A stretch of DNA of 38,826 bases, taken from UHGV virus genome UHGV-0114133. One strand, given 5' to 3'. The stretch comes from a virus. Position numbers and translations under genes: made by a program. Shown in pieces: positions 2,842 to 37,207 of this stretch (its first letter is position 1; each line of letters opens with the position of its first letter). Below the pieces are notes generated by a model that saw nothing but the letters and a program-made list of their open reading frames with translations, did no database searches and had not been told where the DNA came from.

Positions 2842-3897
2842 CTATTTGCGAGCCTTTGCCTTGCGCAGCTCTTCGAGAATCGCCAGTTCTTCCTTGCTCA
2901 ACATGACCATTTCCCCGTCTTTTTCTTCAGGAGCAACATCGATAATGTCCTCCGGATCATCACCTGGCAAGATATCTTCTGGCTCTTCAGGCGTGGCCAT
3001 AGATGGCGGCAGTGCCGAACGTAACTTCGGCCGTCTATAGTGGATGACGAAGTAGACCGAGCTGCCGCGTTTCACTTCAGTGTAATCGAGATAGCCGATC
3101 TCTCGCAGCTGCTCCATCGCCTTCCTGACTGTCGCATTCTGGGTAATGGTGCGGCTGGTTAAGTTAAGTCTGGCGCGTAAGCGAGCCAATGAGATTGGCG
3201 CCGGGTCTGGTGGCAAACTTTCAATGAAGGTGTAGAGCGCCTGCGCGGATTCCTTTCTGGAGAGTTCGTTGATGGCCCGAAGTTGCAAAAGCACCTTTTT
3301 GTCGAACTGGTAAAGTTCGAAAATCTTAGGATCGGCCTTCAGTTCGACCGTGTCATTCTTGGTACTGTACTTTGCCGTCTGCACAAGGTGCGTAACGTAA
3401 TACTCTTCAGAGCCTTTGCTGCGGAATGAGATGGTGTTTGTGGCGATACGACTTAGAGAGCTGTCCAGGCGCTTACGTAACTTCGCGGACGATCTGGCTG
3501 TTGGTATGCCACAAAGTCTGACGAACTCGACGAACGGCAACGTGACGGTGTCACCAACAACCTTGTGCTTGGCGAACGCGTGGATGATGCCCACCCATGT
3601 TTTGAAATCGTTATCCATATCAAGACGAAGACCAGCAATCCTTATATCCTCGTACCCTTCGGCTTTGGCCAGAGACAGCTGTTTGAGTTCAGCGGAGGCG
3701 TCCATAGAGACCATTTGCCCCTTTCTACCCCTGGATGTCGATTTCAGCGTCGGAACGAAGAGACCAAGACGCATCAGAGCAACAGGCTGAACTGTGTTGT
3801 TGGTGTTAGGAACTAACGTAACAACTTCGCCGGTCTTTTTGTCTGTTTCGGAAAATGCTTCGCTTATCGCAATGTTTTTATTGTCGTTTACGCTCAT
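2842..3897 (-). CDS. repA: Plasmid replication initiator RepA (iteron-binding, P1/RepFIB-like)
   Basis: 351-aa ORF flanked on both sides by iteron arrays; acidic C-terminus; organisation typical of P1-type replicons. Confidence 0.8.
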
Positions 3898-3940
3898 TCC
3901 AAATGTCTCTTTTTATTCGACGGCTTGGGTGCCTTTACTG

Positions 3941-4059
3941 ATTACAGTGGATAGTAGCACCCATCACAGTGGTTATCCTACCGCCTACAGCGGTTTTTCT
4001 ACTCTCCATAGTGGTTGATTTACTCTCCATAGTGGTTGTTCTTCTCACTATAGTGGATA
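3941..4059. repeat. Origin-proximal iterons (incC-like), 6 copies immediately upstream of repA
   Basis: TACTCTCCATAGTGGTTG and variants x6, same family as 2240-2840. Confidence 0.8.
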
Positions 4060-4099
4060 TCGATAACCTCTAAAGCCATGTGGCACAACGGTTTGCAGG

Positions 4100-4185
4100 G
4101 GCCGGGGATCTCTTTGGGTCTTTGTGGTTCTCTTTGGTTCTAACAGGGATCTGAATTACTGGATCGGGCCTGTGTATAAAAATCA
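4100..4185. promoter_or_regulatory. Origin-like segment A: 3 GATC sites plus DnaA-box-like TGTGTATAA
   Basis: GATC at 4107, 4148, 4162; TGTGTATAA at 4172 is one mismatch from the TGTGGATAA consensus. Confidence 0.5.
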
Positions 4186-4338
4186 GATAATTACAAAATC
4201 AGGCATCACTCCCCTTCTGGGGATAATGTGTGATCGAAATAAACACGCCGCAACGCAAAATTTACAATATTTCCAAGAATATCAGCCATCTGCCGCAGAA
4301 AAACAGGCTCGGAGTTATCCAGTTAAAACATTGTCTCC

Positions 4339-4442
4339 TACTCACTACAGTGGATACCGACTACTCTCCAGAGAGGTTGTTTTGCTCTTCATAGCGGTTA
4401 TTATGCTCTCTACAGTGGTTATTTTGCTCCCTATAGTGGATA
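4339..4442. repeat. Second iteron cluster (5 copies)
   Basis: TACTCACTACAGTGGATA, TGCTCTCTACAGTGGTTATT and similar. Confidence 0.75.
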
Positions 4443-4482
4443 GTAACCCCTTCTCAAGCCAGTAACCGCAAGCGCTGGAGAC

Positions 4483-4555
4483 GATCGGGGATCTCTTTTG
4501 ATCTTCTGTAGGATCTCTCTGGGGATCTAAATATTGGATCGGGCCTGTGAATAAA
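4483..4555. promoter_or_regulatory. Origin-like segment B: 6 GATC sites in 58 bp plus DnaA-box-like TGTGAATAA
   Basis: GATC at 4483, 4490, 4500, 4512, 4524, 4537; TGTGAATAA at 4547; resembles Dam-methylation-controlled P1 oriR. Confidence 0.6.
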
Positions 4556-28869: not shown

Positions 28870-29439
28870 ATGGATGTGATGGAAACCCAGAACCAACAAA
28901 CAAAACCTCTGAATAATGCTTATGCGTGGCTTCTAGCTTTACTGCCTCTCTTCTTTGGAGCACCGCCAGATGAGTATTTGAATTATGCAATAGTGATAGG
29001 TGGAGTCGCTGGACTCGGCTTTCTGGTGGCTGACAGAATGGCATTGTCTGATGCAGGGTATGAACCACCGGCCATCCTGTGGGGAGTATTTCTCCTTCCG
29101 GTCTATCTCTGGAAACGTGCCACCGTTACAAAAGGCAGTCGACTTCCTTTTATCGTAATCGTCGCGTTGCTTGCTGGTAACATCTTCATCGGTATCCCAC
29201 ACCAGGAAGAGGTTGCTCTTGAAGAAGCGGCTTGTCCTCTCGTAACGACCATTCTGAAAGAGAATAACGGAACCACAGCGCCGAAATGTATGAAGGTGAC
29301 AATTCAGGACAAGGTGACGGACAAGTTCTATAAAGCGACGGCTACGCTGGATAACGGCAACGACATAAACGTTACTCTGGAACTGACCGGCGAAAGAAAC
29401 TTTTATGTGCGCGTTCCGGATGCCTATCTGAACAACTAA
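28870..29439 (+). CDS. integral membrane protein (189 aa)
   Basis: Several hydrophobic segments (LLALLPLFFGA, IVIGGVAGLGFLVA, ILWGVFLLPVYLW, FIVIVALLAGNIFIGI). Confidence 0.55.
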   Translation: MDVMETQNQQTKPLNNAYAWLLALLPLFFGAPPDEYLNYAIVIGGVAGLGFLVADRMALSDAGYEPPAILWGVFLLPVYLWKRATVTKGSRLPFIVIVALLAGNIFIGIPHQEEVALEEAACPLVTTILKENNGTTAPKCMKVTIQDKVTDKFYKATATLDNGNDINVTLELTGERNFYVRVPDAYLNN

Positions 29440-29783
29440 CGGCTGCAACTCGTTGATATTGGCGGTCACAAATTGAGGATTTCTATAAGAGTCCGTTGAT
29501 CGCCACTTTCCCCACCACCCTACCCCACTCAATCCCAGGCGTGACAAGGCATTTAAGCCAATTACACCCATAAGAAAACAAATAAATAACACATCAACGT
29601 AAAGTCAACGCTTTCCCCTGATTTGGTCTAAAAAGTTGATGTTTTCGCACGCCATCTCTTATACCCAAAATCCTGTGTGCCAGAATCCATCTCCCCGCGA
29701 CCAAAGCGTCAAAAACGACTCGTGATACCACCCAAAAACAGACACGCTCAGAAGCGCTCCCGTTGCGTTATATTGGGCATCTA

Positions 29784-29816
29784 AACAAGTTGTTTTCAGG
29801 CATAAGAAAACAAGTT
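29784..29816 (+). promoter_or_regulatory. Cassette leader motif, two adjacent partial copies, with no gene downstream
   Basis: aaacaagttgtttt then agaaaacaagtt. Confidence 0.35.
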
Positions 29817-29867
29817 AACCACACCCACAGGAAACCCAGAGACGCCATTACCCACAATCCCGGAAAC

Positions 29868-29959
29868 ACCCACCTCTTCCTGTCAGGCTACCGAAAAGAC
29901 CCACCTCTTTGCCCCAGGCTACAGAGCACCCACCTAATCTCCCCAGGCAACCGAGAACG
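29868..29959 (+). repeat. Tandem triplet of about 30-bp C-rich repeats
   Basis: cccacctcttcctgtcaggctaccga / cccacctctttgccccaggctacaga / cccacctaatctccccaggcaaccga. Confidence 0.6.
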
Positions 29960-30536
29960 CAGCTCGCGCACGCAAACCCCTACACGCCATTACCCAATAC
30001 ACGGAGAAGAACAGCCAGAACGAAACCCCGGACAAACCCAGACCAGAACAGGAACCGTCGCAATCTCGTTTACCCACCATTACCCCGAAAGAGAGCGCAA
30101 ATTCCTGAATAGCAGGGAACGTCATTACTTCATATGCGGAGAACAACAAAAGCGCCCTACTGCCATTACCCACACTTCCATCAATTCACGTAAACGAAGA
30201 GAAAAGCGCACCTGCCATTACTCCATACACGGAGAAGAACAATCACCAAAACGACGAGAACAACCCAGACGAAAACACAGAGAAGAACCACCTCAAGAAG
30301 AACGAAACCACATATGCCGGTAGAAAGAACAAACCACCCATTTCACCCACAGGAATAGTCGCCGTATTGAGCGTTATCAGAGAGAAGGTTTATGCCCACA
30401 TAAGAGAGAAAATTCGTGGGAGGTATAAGTGGGAAGGGAAGGAGGGGTATCGCCACTTTCTTCGTATAAATTCAAGCCATAGTTTTCATCCCCCGTAACG
30501 TCCCTTTCCACCCCTTCGGTCAGCCTTCGGGCCATC

Positions 30537-30680
30537 CAGGGAAAAGGCCATGTCCCTTTTCAGAAACGGGAGCGTCGCCGCAGGGAAAAGGCTGGAGGTT
30601 TTTCAGGGAAACGGTGGGAATCCCGCTATACGAACCGGGAAAAGGCTGGCTGCCGGTCGGGAAACGGGTACATCCCGGTA
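30537..30680 (+). repeat. Tandem triplet of about 45-bp G-rich repeats
   Basis: cagggaaaaggc...ttttcagaaacgg / cagggaaaaggctgg...tttttcagggaaacgg / ccgggaaaaggctgg...cgggaaacgg. Confidence 0.55.
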
Positions 30681-30988
30681 CAGAGCGAGGGACGACTGCG
30701 GGAGCGGTGCGGGAAATCTTCGGGAGTGCGCCTTACTCTTCACTCGCCTGAAAATCGCGAGGGAGTGTCGTTCCCTCTCGTGCAGCTACTGGACTCCATT
30801 CTGCCAGACCATCATCGGGTCTCAAGCGATTTCAGTAGGTTTTCGGGGAGAAGGATATTCTGCCCACCAGCCCCGCGGCGCGCGTAGAGCAGAATATCGT
30901 AAATACTGGCTCCCGTGTCGTTCCCGGATATTCACTACCCAGCCTGGCTTTCCCGACATAAAATCCTTTTTCGCCTTTGTCTTATTGC

Positions 30989-31023
30989 GATAATAACACC
31001 AACAAGTAAACAACATGTTTAGA
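30989..31023 (+). promoter_or_regulatory. Cassette promoter/leader motif (type I)
   Basis: gataataacaccaacaagtaaacaacatgtttaga. Confidence 0.5.
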
Positions 31024-31052
31024 CGTTATATAAACGAAGTGAGGATGAAGAG

Positions 31053-31271
31053 ATGATTAAGATGCCTGTGACGGTTGAGGTGTGGGGCGTGGATTCCCTG
31101 GCTGAGTGTCTGGATGCCGTGGGGCCGGAGTTGTACCGCAAGTTGTGGTCGTTCGTCCCGGCAGAAGGGGAATCGCCCAAAGGGAAGGATATCTGGCACC
31201 TGCTGAGTGAAGATGAAAAGCGGGAGCTGGTGGACGCGGTACACAGCGAGTTCCCGGACGACGAAGATTAA
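31053..31271 (+). CDS. hypothetical small acidic protein (72 aa)
   Basis: GAGGA RBS 7 nt before ATG; Asp/Glu-rich. Confidence 0.55.
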   Translation: MIKMPVTVEVWGVDSLAECLDAVGPELYRKLWSFVPAEGESPKGKDIWHLLSEDEKRELVDAVHSEFPDDED

Positions 31272-31276
31272 GAGTG

Positions 31277-31300
31277 AGGCCACCAGCACGGTGGCTTTTG
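31277..31300 (+). terminator. Rho-independent terminator
   Basis: GCCACCAGCACGGTGGC followed by TTTT. Confidence 0.6.
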
Positions 31301-31371
31301 TCGCTATTAACCTCCGGGGCAGCGCAGCACCGTAACGATATACTTTGTGGCCGTTTTCTTACTGGTATTGT

Positions 31372-31402
31372 TTACGCAATTCAGAAAACAACATGTTTAA
31401 GG
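31372..31402 (+). promoter_or_regulatory. Cassette promoter/leader motif (type II)
   Basis: ttacgcaattcagaaaacaacatgtttaagg; the upstream 60 bp is homologous to 31831-31890. Confidence 0.5.
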
Positions 31403-31410
31403 ATTGCTTT

Positions 31411-31740
31411 ATGTTTGCAAATATCGACATCAACCAAATCAAGAAAATGACTCAAAAAGAGTTTGACCAGTTTTATGAGTTAGAAGGTTGGTCTTCCACG
31501 CTGATCAATTCGCGCTGGGTGCTTGAGCTGATGACTCGTGATGATGCTCCTGCTTTGATTATTTGCGACATGGGTGAAGATGCTGACTTTATGGATATGA
31601 GCGAATTTTGTGTGGACACATACAACCGCAGCCAGAAGTACTACTTCACATGCGATAGCGAGAATGACGTGATTTCTAAGCTCTATCTTCACCTTGTCCA
31701 GCATTGGGACGTGCAGGAATTCCTTGAGTTATTCGCGTAA
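31411..31740 (+). CDS. hypothetical acidic protein (109 aa)
   Basis: AAGGA RBS before ATG 31411; alternative ATG 31393 lies inside the motif. Confidence 0.55.
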   Translation: MFANIDINQIKKMTQKEFDQFYELEGWSSTLINSRWVLELMTRDDAPALIICDMGEDADFMDMSEFCVDTYNRSQKYYFTCDSENDVISKLYLHLVQHWDVQEFLELFA

Positions 31741-33867: not shown

Positions 33868-33871
33868 AAAT

Positions 33872-33960
33872 GACCATCCTGTTTCCCGCAGGCTAAAAAC
33901 ACCAACCTCTTACCTCCAGGCAACCGACAAACCCACCTGTTCCCGTCCGGCTACCGCAAC
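33872..33960 (+). repeat. Second tandem triplet of about 30-bp C-rich repeats (paralogous to 29868-29959)
   Basis: ccatcctgtttcccgcaggctaaaaa / ccaacctcttacctccaggcaaccga / cccacctgttcccgtccggctaccg. Confidence 0.6.
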
Positions 33961-33989
33961 TTTCCACTTTGACGCCTTATTCGTACAAC

Positions 33990-34028
33990 GATAATTAACA
34001 CCAACAAGAAAACAATTTGTTATTTACG
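33990..34028 (+). promoter_or_regulatory. Cassette promoter/leader motif (type I)
   Basis: gataattaacaccaacaagaaaacaatttgttatttacg. Confidence 0.5.
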
Positions 34029-34042
34029 ATAAGGAATTAATC

Positions 34043-34525
34043 ATGAATTTTATCGCTACTGTAAACGCACCCGCACATGGCAATATCGCTGTAACGTTCT
34101 CTGACATTGAAAAACGAGTACTTGGTGCATGGCGCGACAATGAGACGGTAGAACTGTCAGCACAAGAAAAATGCATTATTGCACGCGACATCATTGGCAA
34201 TCGTCGTTACTCGCGGGTATTTGAGAAAGCATATGTGGTAAATTCTGGATTCGGAACGTTCGTCTTTCCGGTGCGCTCCGGGCGATTCTGCCAGTCCAAG
34301 CTGATTGAGTTCGCTACGCAGATTTCTGTCTGGATTAAAACTCAATCGTCGTTCAAATTTTCCGACGATGAAGCAGTATCGCAGGGGATGCGGATCGCCA
34401 ACAATGCAATAAAATGCAAAAACATTACGTATGCCGCTGGCGTTGACACATGGAAACTGTTTTGCGCTAACTTTATGCTGAATGTATACGCAAGCAACCG
34501 CATCCACATCCTTGATGGCGTGTAA
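34043..34525 (+). CDS. hypothetical protein (160 aa)
   Basis: AAGGA RBS before ATG; flanked by C-rich and G-rich repeat blocks. Confidence 0.6.
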   Translation: MNFIATVNAPAHGNIAVTFSDIEKRVLGAWRDNETVELSAQEKCIIARDIIGNRRYSRVFEKAYVVNSGFGTFVFPVRSGRFCQSKLIEFATQISVWIKTQSSFKFSDDEAVSQGMRIANNAIKCKNITYAAGVDTWKLFCANFMLNVYASNRIHILDGV

Positions 34526-34532
34526 CTGAGAA

Positions 34533-34557
34533 GAGGGCCAGAAACGGCCCTTTCTCT
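34533..34557 (+). terminator. Rho-independent terminator
   Basis: GAGGGCCAGAAACGGCCCT followed by TTCTC. Confidence 0.55.
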
Positions 34558-34572
34558 ATAGCCACCAGCTGC

Positions 34573-34720
34573 CGCAGGGAAATTTTCAGAAACGGCGAGG
34601 AACGCATTCATGAGCCGAAGGGAAACGACCATGAAATTTTCTGGAAACGGCGGGGGTCGCCTTTATGTAGAAAACTGAGCGGGAGAAACCCGGAATCGCG
34701 CCAGAAATTGCGTAGCGGCG
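34573..34720 (+). repeat. Second block of G-rich repeats (paralogous to 30537-30680)
   Basis: cagggaaattttcagaaacggcgagg / aagggaaacgaccatgaaattttctggaaacggcgggg. Confidence 0.5.
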
Positions 34721-35063
34721 CTGGGGTAGCGCTGGTGGGGTTTCAGCCCCTGGGCCATCCAGATAGCTTTCGCTATGTGATTATGTGAATCCGTGGGTAA
34801 ATCACTGTAAGCGCGTACACGTTGCCCAACGTGGCAATCATATGCGAGTGGATACAAAACAACACAAAGAGCCGATCCGCGCCGACAAATAAACGCGGAT
34901 CACGCCAACGACACGACAAAATAAGCAACACGCTAAAACGCTGTAAAACGTGCTATAACGTGTTTTTATTGTGGGTAATGGTCAGATACTGCTACTCGCA
35001 AAAATGCGTTAAATTGGTGCTTTTATGGCGCTTGCCTTTGGTCTGTTTTGGCTAACTTCGGAC

Positions 35064-35137
35064 AATAAAAAACGCGCCAATGATGGCGCGTTATGGTGGG
35101 AGTATTGGAAACGAAAAAAGCGCCCATAGTGGGCGCT
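35064..35137 (-). terminator. Two tandem rho-independent terminators for the minus-strand operon
   Basis: Hairpins AACGCGCCAATGATGGCGCGTT and AGCGCCCATAGTGGGCGCT, each followed by a U-tract on the minus strand. Confidence 0.6.
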
Positions 35138-35142
35138 CGATT

Positions 35143-35364
35143 TTATTTGTGTAAACTAATTTTGAATCCCATTTCTACAAACGCTTTTAACATTAAAAAT
35201 ATATCAGCGTCATTCACGTCTGCTTTTTTTCGCTCCTGGTCGTTCAATAAGTCAATTTTGCGCGTTGTTTCATTTATAAACTCGACTGCGCGCCCAGCGA
35301 TCCCAGCGATGCGATTAACATAATATTCATTATGGACGTTAACGCCAGCGATAAGAACAAACAT
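35143..35364 (-). CDS. small hypothetical protein (73 aa)
   Basis: AGGAG RBS; flanked on both sides by the same 19-bp hairpin. Confidence 0.45.
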   Translation of the reverse strand: MFVLIAGVNVHNEYYVNRIAGIAGRAVEFINETTRKIDLLNDQERKKADVNDADIFLMLKAFVEMGFKISLHK

Positions 35365-35414
35365 GATTAAGCTCCTTAAAACTAGCGCCCACTATGGGCG
35401 CTATATCCATCTAA

Positions 35415-36694: not shown

Positions 36695-37207
36695 TCAAAA
36701 AGGCAAAATTCGTTCAACCCAATCGAACAAAACAACTATTTTTCTACCGTTCTCGACACGTAGTGTAACCTGACAAGCATCTGCGCCTGCTGACACCCCC
36801 TCAATTTCACGGCCATCCGCCATGTAAACCCTTATAGACTTCTGTGTTTCATGAGCCTGACGACAAATTCTGAAGAAGTCGCGGCGAGATGGTTGGTTGT
36901 TCACGTAGTCCGGATGTATGGTAAGCCTGCCCGTAAAGCCCTCATCTACTTCTGGAGGTATAATCGTTTCTATGGTGCTAACTCTCTCAATAGGAAGACG
37001 AACTCGATGCTCTTTGCTTCCTGGAACGGGAGAAAGATCGAGTTTGTTGCGTGATGGTAGTGTTCCCTGTATGTACATGTTGAACACTTGTCCATCTTCC
37101 ATCGTGACCTTTACAGGAACAGAGCGTGCCCTCCAGAACATCAAGGTATGTTCCACATTCGAATAGTCTCTGGGCCAGACCTCTGCAGGGATGCCATATG
37201 TAACCAT
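36695..37207 (-). CDS. hypothetical protein (170 aa)
   Basis: Co-oriented with and 3 bp upstream of the 36383 gene (operon). Confidence 0.55.
   Translation of the reverse strand: MVTYGIPAEVWPRDYSNVEHTLMFWRARSVPVKVTMEDGQVFNMYIQGTLPSRNKLDLSPVPGSKEHRVRLPIERVSTIETIIPPEVDEGFTGRLTIHPDYVNNQPSRRDFFRICRQAHETQKSIRVYMADGREIEGVSAGADACQVTLRVENGRKIVVLFDWVERILPF

Follow-up and report, generated by a model that had tools for sequence, protein, structure and literature searches.

We analyzed a 38,826-nucleotide (nt) stretch of viral DNA, genome UHGV-0114133 (hereafter the window), which on sequence grounds can be assigned to the SSU5/pHCM2 type of phage-plasmids. The gene-free segment described below matches Salmonella phage SSU5 at 94% identity over 80% of its length, and it also matches hundreds of plasmids of ~110 kb, mostly IncFIB-typed and non-mobilizable, from Escherichia, Klebsiella, Enterobacter, Salmonella, Citrobacter and Cronobacter. 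The gene content of the window includes repA, nucleotide-metabolism genes, SbcCD-like genes, a methyltransferase and an antirepressor. From ~21 kb on, small plus-strand cassettes follow one another in a run; upstream of most of them lies a promoter, in many cases with an extended -10, and their 5' leaders contain a 13-bp palindrome, AAACAAnTTGTTT. Our analysis centers on a gene-free module among these cassettes, the features of which are given in Table 1. The ends of this module are identical in every clade; the neighboring genes on its left vary, including a gene for a 189 amino acid (aa) protein, a DUF262 gene on the opposite strand, ivy and others.

Table 1. Features of the gene-free module and of a second locus sharing its repeats (window coordinates).
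Feature	Coordinates	Strand	Description and evidence
Whole gene-free module	29447-31024	none	BLAST boundaries against the Klebsiella, second E. coli and Cronobacter clades; alignments; 859 plasmid records
5' element	29451-29504	+	CGTTGA hexamers at 29451 and 29494; inverted repeat GGCGGTCA (29461-29468) / TGATCGCC (29497-29504); near-invariant in all clades
Leader-like copy 1, ACACCCATAAGAAAACAAAT...	29562-29592	+	Only left half of operator; repeat family D3; cassette-leader comparison; 90% column conservation
TCAACG hexamers and bipartite promoter-like site	29594-29664	+	TCAACG at 29594 and 29605 (11 bp apart), then TTGAYG (29636-29641), 17-nt spacer, TTATAC (29659-29664)
Block ACACGCTCAGAAGCGCTCCCGTTGCG	29742-29767	+	Directly 5' of operator; kept in clades A, B, C, Cronobacter and pCP102
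Operator palindrome AAACAAGTTGTTT	29783-29795	none	One of 12 in window; kept in every lineage
A/C-rich core	29800-30350	+	Composition; bias kept in three clades; weak fold
Leader-like copy 2, CATAAGAAAACAAGTT	29801-29816	+	No gene behind it; repeat and leader comparisons
RYCATTACYYM, six copies	29844-30241	+	One orientation; starts 29844, 29986, 30075, 30121, 30162, 30214
Three ~31-nt units, ACCCACCTC-N8-CCAGGCTACCGA	29867-29957	+	Mutual identity 71-74%
Most conserved core block	30190-30262	+	~57 nt identical between clades otherwise 68% identical
GGTATAAGTGGG, then G-rich / C,U-rich arms (GGGAAGGGAAGGAGGGG ... CACTTTCTTC)	30422-30466	+	Local consensus-fold signal, z about -7
Five GGGAAA[AC]GG cores	30539-30667	+	Starts 30539, 30583, 30606, 30637, 30659; base period ~22 nt, variable spacers
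Predicted sigma-70 extended -10 promoter, inward-facing	30798-30825	-	TTGAGA, 16 nt, TGgCAGAAT; promoter scan
Inverted repeat ATATTCTGC / GCAGAATAT	30855-30897	none	Encloses Chi complement (30864-30871)
Promoter and operator of next cassette (gene 31053-31271)	30985-31021	+	Right boundary of module
Second locus sharing repeat modules	33868-34762	+	Repeat comparisons; likewise in SSU5

The module is neither coding nor decayed coding sequence. The open reading frames (ORFs) listed in it (a 186-aa TTG ORF, a 147-aa ORF and short ones) are not conserved, and in 15 homologous segments from three clades all six frames of 29800-30500 carry stops (2-14 each). In addition, the variable fraction by codon phase (0.56/0.57/0.57) lacks 3-base periodicity, and 18 of the distinct gaps are 1-2 nt long, against few with a length of 3n. 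We looked for a conserved ORF with a coding signature in these 15 relatives and found none, and the RefSeq/PGAP annotation, pseudogenes included, shows nothing at the module in most of its 246 E. coli carrier genomes. A coding gene or pseudogene is ruled out by the stops in all lineages, the missing periodicity and the 1-2-nt indels. This agrees with a preliminary description of the window, made from its letters and ORF list, which had seen no credible ORF here and had argued against decayed coding sequence.

The same data bear on a type I toxin-antitoxin-like locus, in which a small hydrophobic minus-strand peptide (30181-30291, MVLLCVFVWVVLVVLVIVLLRVWSNGR...) would be subject to antisense control by convergent transcription. 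Clades A, B and C and Cronobacter all have an open hydrophobic frame of 36-39 aa, with a 12-nt in-frame deletion inside it, and it is bracketed by convergent promoter-like sites. However, 1-nt indels break the frame in two sequences (L009 and L038), start and stop positions vary between clades, and differences spread equally over codon positions; over one stretch of 57 nt, no codon position varies between clades in which 40-50% of third positions differ elsewhere. Moreover, no usable Shine-Dalgarno spacing is present, and hydrophobic ORFs arise in every frame of G/T-rich DNA, the minus strand of 29800-30350 giving Val/Leu/Phe-rich pseudo-ORFs in all frames. The ORF was rejected as a toxin gene because it has no coding signature, and we consider such a locus highly improbable.

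Using BLAST in distant mode, we found the module in 859 PLSDB plasmid records, 705 of which cover at least 80% of the query with a module length of 1.5-1.6 kb. Among complete E. coli genomes, 246 of 5,426 (~4.5%) are carriers, and no chromosomal match was found in these 5,426 genomes, short seeds being uninformative at this database size. Hosts of module-bearing SSU5-type phage-plasmids include E. coli, Klebsiella and Salmonella, and a scan of species-representative genomes with the pattern ACACGCTCAGAAGCGCTCCCGTTGCG gave only copies in Kluyvera and Buttiauxella, both clade A-like. The plasmid records and 51 viral contigs were reduced to 24 non-redundant sequences, which fall into three deep clades with mutual identities of 62-72%, with recombinants in addition. 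More distant is the Enterobacter plasmid pCP102 (L066, 2913-4815), where a 1.9-kb gene-free gap has the same layout and contains four copies of GCCATTACCCACAC and several CTATAGGG-type motifs. At the right end of this gap lies an ORF for 80 aa on the minus strand, unannotated and with a hydrophobic segment. Of the repeat families described below, looked for in these related elements, the RYCATTACYYM family is present in every clade and in pCP102.

The identity of the module to other clades (0.69-0.72) is below that of the first and second codon positions of flanking orthologues. Since it exceeds the identity of their third positions (0.33-0.59), it indicates purifying selection on the nucleotide sequence of the module. 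The functional non-coding element proposed in the preliminary description is thus supported, both by conservation above the synonymous sites of the neighbors and by full-length presence in ~860 plasmids. It should be noted that an IS3 insertion sequence (IS) in CP099103.1 (L071, at ~30505) and an IS1 in NZ_CP083480.1 (L072, at ~30260; both in window-equivalent positions) interrupt the module in plasmids that are otherwise complete (~112 kb), so that an intact module is dispensable for plasmid maintenance.

Another explanation for a segment of this kind is evolutionary debris, that is, the remains of old cassettes (leaders, flanking repeats and a dead low-complexity gene) hitch-hiking without function. 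The gene-less leader fragments, the sharing of modules with another cassette, the rare IS insertions and the presence of some indels that are multiples of 3 (12 and 21 nt) are consistent with debris, as is one frame (mod3=1) that reads as a P/T/E/K/N-rich, protein-like sequence with two stops over 690 nt and AIT(Q/P)YTEKN repeats in register. However, T-poor sequence gives long open frames by chance, the ORF is intact in no lineage and there is no codon-position signal. Taking into account that the module is conserved above the synonymous sites of its neighbors, that its length and ends are kept in ~700 records and three deep clades, and that the supposedly dead leader region is its best-conserved part, we regard debris as very improbable.

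The composition of the module sets it apart from the rest of the window. Computed base composition and GC/AT skew confirmed what had been judged by eye, namely an extremely A/C-rich plus strand at 29800-30350 (A 37.2, C 34.1, G 16.5 and T 12.2%) followed by G-rich sequence (30350-30720, G 31.5 vs C 22.9%), the local skew changing sign at ~30350. GC skew reaches -0.45 and AT skew +0.53 in the module, the extremes of the whole window, and the tract with C above G (C-G≥0.10) at 29446-30257, ~810 nt, is the longest in the window, with a C/G ratio of 2.07 over 29500-30350. Plus-sense start codons number just 3 per 551 nt of the core. GC content is 45-60% throughout, and the composition profile revealed no AT-rich unwinding element in the module. 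A+C makes up 69-76% of 29800-30350 in all three clades, despite ~30% of the aligned positions differing; A<->C changes account for 30-35% of these differences and G<->T changes for 2-6%, about the values calculated for random draws from that composition. The strand bias itself is therefore maintained, at variable positions as well as in motifs. Since double-stranded binding sites would not impose such a bias on unconserved positions, this points to a constraint on a single strand, as RNA or single-stranded DNA, and to selection acting on one strand in single-stranded form.

We found no folded structure in either strand. For the plus strand of the core, the folding energy is -75 kcal/mol per 551 nt (z = -0.35); z is +1.9 for the minus strand and +1.2 for the 3' half, and the consensus fold of the whole module is sparse (-75 kcal/mol over a 1.67-kb alignment). 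Sliding consensus folds picked up just two local signals, one at the 5' inverted repeat and one at 30.42-30.47 kb, and none of the 17 pairs tested in the two best local hairpins shows a compensatory change, including the eight pairs predicted for the 5' inverted repeat. The arms at 30422-30466 vary C<->U against G, which is compatible with G-U wobble pairing and is no proof of it, and the inverted repeat at 30855-30897 was not recovered by the consensus fold and has no compensatory pairs. A search of Rfam 15 gave no match in the window at gathering score and, at E≤10, only a chance match to a human lncRNA model (E=5). A large structured RNA of the GOLLD, ROOL or OLE kind was rejected, as the fold is no better than that of shuffled controls and no covariation is present; the long structured RNA considered in the preliminary description is accordingly not borne out. 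A CsrB-type sponge for CsrA was also rejected, GGA occurring 8 times in the core vs 6.6 expected and AGGA 2 times vs 2.9 (3 vs 3.9 in the 3' part).

Several repeat families, all with their core copies in one orientation, run through the module. The motif GCCATTACCCA is exact at 29844, 29986 and 30162, with variants at 30075, 30121 and 30214, and at ≤1 mismatch it has 5 matches in the window vs 0.46 expected; clades carry 3-6 copies of its RYCATTACYYM form, and pCP102 four. Three copies (29986, 30121 and 30214) extend into a 27-28-nt element, GCCATTACYYMATAYRCGGAGAASAAC, of which the pair at 29986-30013 and 30214-30241 is 93% identical over 28 nt and the third copy (30121-30148) 75%. At least four motif copies and a diverged direct repeat of ~29 nt had been described here, as had three tandem C-rich units of ~30 bp, which correspond to the 31-nt units in Table 1; the latter are ~90% conserved between clades and vary from one to three copies. 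In the 3' part, GGGA occurs 16 times vs 5.3 expected, and the GGGAAA[AC]GG cores are spaced 44/23/31/22 in the window and 22/22/22 in a Cronobacter relative, so that the three G-rich units of ~45 bp seen earlier are better described as five 9-nt cores with a ~22-nt period. Both of the repeat families first noted are thus present, but they are too diverged to count as tandem arrays for Tandem Repeats Finder, which reports none in the module even at score 30. At the 5' end, TCTATAAGAG (29482-29491) is invariant within the 5' element, and the leader-motif copies without a gene behind them were found again (29783-29816), with an additional one at 29562-29592. ToxI-like type III antitoxin repeats and a CRISPR-like array were both rejected: the units are 71-74% alike and contiguous, there is no adjacent toxin or cas ORF, and neither Rfam nor Tandem Repeats Finder reports a match or an array. 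Short stretches that presumably resemble the fliC 5' untranslated region ('ACCCAAUAC'), P1 parS ('ATCGCCAC/ATTTCAC'), a XerCD site, a DnaA box and the T7/SP6 sequence 'CTATAG' are compatible with chance.

Two of the repeat families recur elsewhere in the window. The 31-nt units are found again at 33868-33959, just upstream of the promoter of the plus-strand gene 34043-34525, and G-rich TTTTCAGRRAACGG repeats together with TCAGCCnnnGGGCCATCCAG follow this gene at 34571-34762, including a paralogous GGGAAA[AC]GG array (34571-34660). Because both recur around the same gene, the 31-nt and G-rich families are reusable modules of the element. The gene encodes a 160-aa protein restricted to SSU5-like elements; it was considered as a candidate repeat-binder, and its AlphaFold model is confident (pLDDT 85, pTM 0.73) but has no PDB fold match at E<0.8. 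Downstream, a second gene-poor stretch (34526-35414, ~890 bp) contains the TTTTCAGRRAACGG repeats, an A/C-rich run (34846-34960), an inverted CATTACCCACA (34968-34982) and three GC-rich hairpins (35060-35095, 35107-35135 and 35383-35405), and it may encode small RNAs.

Repeats of this kind suggest a protein-binding hub on double-stranded DNA, in which oriented arrays would assemble a nucleoprotein complex with a phage-plasmid or host protein and any transcription would be incidental. Such a hub could serve as a regulatory or silencing center for the early region, as an accessory centromere-like or pairing site, or as an enhancer of lytic replication. It would account for the conserved cores, the fixed-length variable spacers and the helical-phase spacing (TCAACG 11 bp, GGGAAAMGG ~22 bp, the 31-nt units, CGTTGA 43 bp), for 31-nt unit copy numbers that differ between clades as in iteron-like arrays, and for the recurrence of the families at 33.9-34.8 kb, where one paralogous array lies in a gap that is perhaps untranscribed. 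The DnaA-box-like TTACCCACA, present twice, is also in line with a hub. In contrast, double-stranded binding leaves the A/C bias at unconserved positions unexplained, the module has neither RepA iterons nor an AT-rich unwinding element (GC 45-60%), it lies far from par, terminase and replisome genes, and no candidate binding protein emerged, the 160-aa protein flanked by the repeats having no known fold. We consider a hub possible and nearly as likely as the transcription unit proposed below.

Particular sites in a replicon could also explain repeat arrays, and the preliminary description had proposed several. On the SSU5 map, the module lies at 90.4-91.7 kb, parA at 30.5 kb, repA at 59.4 kb, the helicase, primase and Pol III genes at 34-50 kb and the terminase genes at 134-2034 of a record that ends at 103.3 kb. 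A packaging site (pac/cos) was rejected, as the module is ~12 kb from the record end and hence from the terminase genes. The centromere proposal finds no clear support: the module has repeat arrays, and 60 kb separate it from parA in SSU5. A RepFIB iteron origin or incompatibility locus was rejected as well, the iteron matrix scoring 18-27 at >25 sites around repA and 5.6 at best in the module. In the window, repA (2842-3897, minus strand) has >25 copies of a 21-bp RepFIB-type iteron (ACTCTCYAYAGTGGWTR...) on both sides (2235-2823 and 3937-4447), with DnaA boxes nearby at 4171-4554.

The left part of the module resembles the leaders of the cassettes around it. The palindrome AAACAAnTTGTTT occurs at 12 sites in the window (21462, 22433, 23745, 27471, 27787, 28163, 28214, 29782, 31007, 31385, 31876 and 33524) vs 1.4 matches expected. 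Most sites lie ~12 nt after promoters, often with an extended -10 (TGnGATAAT / TGGTATTAT), in the 5' leaders of small cassettes, and at most of the 11 sites outside the module the palindrome is located between a plus-strand promoter and the gene. Because in SSU5 it is also found ahead of the terS-like and parA genes, we take it to be a putative operator, dispersed genome-wide in a P1-like network.

Two bipartite sites of the module carry the evolutionary signature of real promoters and are predicted to act as such. In TTGAYG-N17-TTATAC, on the plus strand, the hexamers are invariant and the spacer is fixed in length and variable in sequence in all clades and pCP102; the stretch that contains it (29594-29664) is the best-conserved part of the module. 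The promoter scan of 29000-31500 passed a single site, at 30798-30825 on the minus strand, and at sequence level this site has the elements of a sigma-70 promoter. Its -35 TTG, its TG and its CAnAAT are conserved in clades A, B, C and Cronobacter, with a spacer that is always 16 nt long and varies in sequence; SSU5 itself lacks this promoter, and a minus-strand gene occupies its place. The core is bracketed by the operator on the left and by this inward-facing promoter on the right.

A promoter that faces a strand-biased core raises the possibility of a transcription-primed (R-loop) lytic origin, where the minus-strand RNA would hybridize within a 550-bp stretch (RNA G 34%, 20 GGG runs) and be processed to a primer by RNase H/Pol I-like functions, as in ColE1 and T4. 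The conservation of the extended -10 promoter, the strong excess of G over C on the minus strand with 20 runs of at least three G, the local change of skew sign at ~30350 and the fact that SSU5 encodes RNase H-like proteins, a Pol I-like protein, ligase, helicase and primase are all consistent with such an origin. However, the promoter is missing in SSU5, a phage that grows lytically, and the first ~440 nt of the minus-strand RNA are C-rich instead of G-rich; the module contains no AT-rich unwinding element and no initiator repeats, and it lies 40-55 kb from the replisome genes. The IS insertions also speak against an origin, though only plasmid maintenance is known for those records. We therefore hold an R-loop origin to be improbable.

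Altogether, the module looks like a selectively maintained non-coding regulatory element in the repressor-controlled early/accessory region of SSU5-type phage-plasmids. We tentatively favor a repressor-linked non-coding transcription unit whose RNA, unstructured, rich in C and bearing motifs, would serve to load Rho or to titrate a factor. This possibility is ranked first because it accounts for the strand bias, the uniform orientation of the motifs, the operator and promoter signatures and the lack of a fold. The ~1-kb core (29.8-30.8 kb) would act as a transcription unit between the operator-bearing, leader-like region and the inward-facing promoter, and its working product would be an RNA used in single-stranded form. 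We infer that the module is transcribed and that the plus strand is the one that matters: a plus-sense RNA would be nearly structure-free, poor in start codons and C-rich/G-poor over ~800 nt, and it would bear same-orientation motifs, first CAUUACCCA and the 31-nt units and then GGGAAAMGG. Such an RNA could load or titrate an RNA-binding factor, with Rho as the obvious candidate since Rho loads on untranslated, unstructured RNA tracts with C above G; a leader-binding regulator or a G/U-rich host small RNA (sRNA) are alternative partners. In this way, the module would gate or time early expression.

Several observations weigh against this proposal. The sole canonical promoter of the module points the opposite way, on the minus strand, and no canonical plus-strand -10 was found, the plus-strand site (TTATAC/TATACC) lacking the -7 T. 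The repeat spacings of 11, 22, 31-33 and 44 bp, the conserved cores and the fixed-length variable spacers resemble protein sites on one face of double-stranded DNA, and the 31-nt array at 33.9 kb, situated in the gap between a hairpin and a promoter, need not be transcribed. In addition, the core shows no enrichment of GGA or AGGA, no complementarity beyond chance to antisense targets was found within 97 kb of SSU5, and the IS3 and IS1 insertions within the module are tolerated in maintained plasmids. Finally, a Rho entry site alone would not require 1.5 kb of sequence-specific conservation.

A variant of the transcription unit, which we consider rather unlikely, is a ~1-kb structure-free A/C-rich RNA made early after infection or induction as a high-capacity decoy. 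It could soak up Rho and so relieve polarity across the many short early cassettes, or it could titrate a binder of A/C-rich cassette leaders or G/U-rich host sRNAs, with the FljA-family repressor, Hfq and GcvB-type sRNAs as candidates. If true, phage-plasmids would have a first example of a long 'linear' sponge RNA, present in ~4.5% of complete E. coli genomes.

Other features of the surrounding DNA should be mentioned. A minus-strand gene at 36695-37207 encodes an FljA-family protein (Pfam PF03614, E 2e-73) and is located in what is putatively the immunity region of the phage-plasmid; in Salmonella, FljA acts on fliC mRNA as a post-transcriptional repressor. Chi (GCTGGTGG) is strongly overrepresented, with 15 sites in the window vs 1.1 expected (e.g., 28760, 30864, 31226, 31280 and 33856), and several copies sit within GC-rich hairpins 3' of genes (31280 and 33856). 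Relatives that belong to the second E. coli clade have a complete gene for methionine-tRNA ligase (metG) a few cassettes upstream of the module (L007 1-95, L008 1-577).

We compared the module with known systems whose features are established knowledge, namely rut regions, sponge RNAs, iteron and centromere arrays, operator networks and R-loop origins. Like the Rho rut/polarity regions of temperate phages (lambda tR1/nut and the P4 and P1 immunity leaders), it has an untranslated, unstructured, C-rich/G-poor tract downstream of repressor-controlled promoters in an early region of short units, and, provided the plus strand is transcribed, this tract exceeds the minimum of 80 nt that the compositional definition of such regions sets for untranslated RNA that is free of structure and much richer in C than in G. 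The likeness is compositional, however: the tract is ~800 nt long vs ~80-100 nt in known cases, it carries clade-conserved, sequence-specific repeated motifs, and we found no boxA/boxB-like antitermination site and no complementary small RNA. With the sponge RNAs CsrB/CsrC and CrcZ and the prophage anti-sRNA AgvB, the module shares a non-coding nature and many short motifs in the same orientation; AgvB is a precedent for a sponge encoded by a mobile element, and G/U-rich seeds such as that of GcvB target A/C-rich sequence. In contrast to these RNAs, the module lacks GGA/AGGA enrichment in the core and a match in Rfam, its motifs do not lie in hairpin loops, and its RNA would be ~1 kb, 3-5 times longer than those known.

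Plasmid iteron and centromere arrays (P1 incA/parS, F sopC, R1 parC and the dispersed sop sites of N15) also consist of oriented repeat clusters with helical-phase spacing and variable copy number in a non-coding stretch. The module differs from them in several ways: it lacks the RepA iterons of its element, it is not next to rep or par genes, and its repeats are surrounded by a strand-biased stretch of 550 nt, a feature absent from such sites. Dispersed-operator networks (P1 C1 operators and mycobacteriophage stoperators) are represented by one copy of the genome-recurrent 13-bp palindrome, found mostly downstream of promoters, but with one full operator (13 of ~1580 bp) and two half-copies the module is not an operator array. 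R-loop origins (ColE1 RNA II and T4 ori(uvsY)/ori(34)) are similar in having a promoter that leads into a region of G-rich RNA, on an element that encodes RNase H/Pol I-like functions; the missing AT-rich unwinding element and the absence of the promoter from phage SSU5 set the module apart. It thus has the defining features of none of the known systems tested, except for the compositional definition of a Rho entry region. We found no description of the module region or of SSU5 regulation in the literature, and the module is a real, undescribed and selectively maintained element among phage non-coding regulatory modules.

SSU5/pHCM2-type phage-plasmids are common in clinical Enterobacteriaceae and members of the family carry resistance genes, yet their regulation is essentially unstudied. 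Despite conservation above the synonymous sites of its neighbors, the module, which sits among variable accessory cassettes, codes for no protein, is unannotated and has no counterpart among RNA families, and selection on strand composition itself is unusual. Working out its role would open up an early-gene control circuit in which the cassette promoters are joined to the network of AAACAAnTTGTTT operators, with Rho or some titrated factor as a possible further part, and it could provide a handle for curing or controlling SSU5-type elements.

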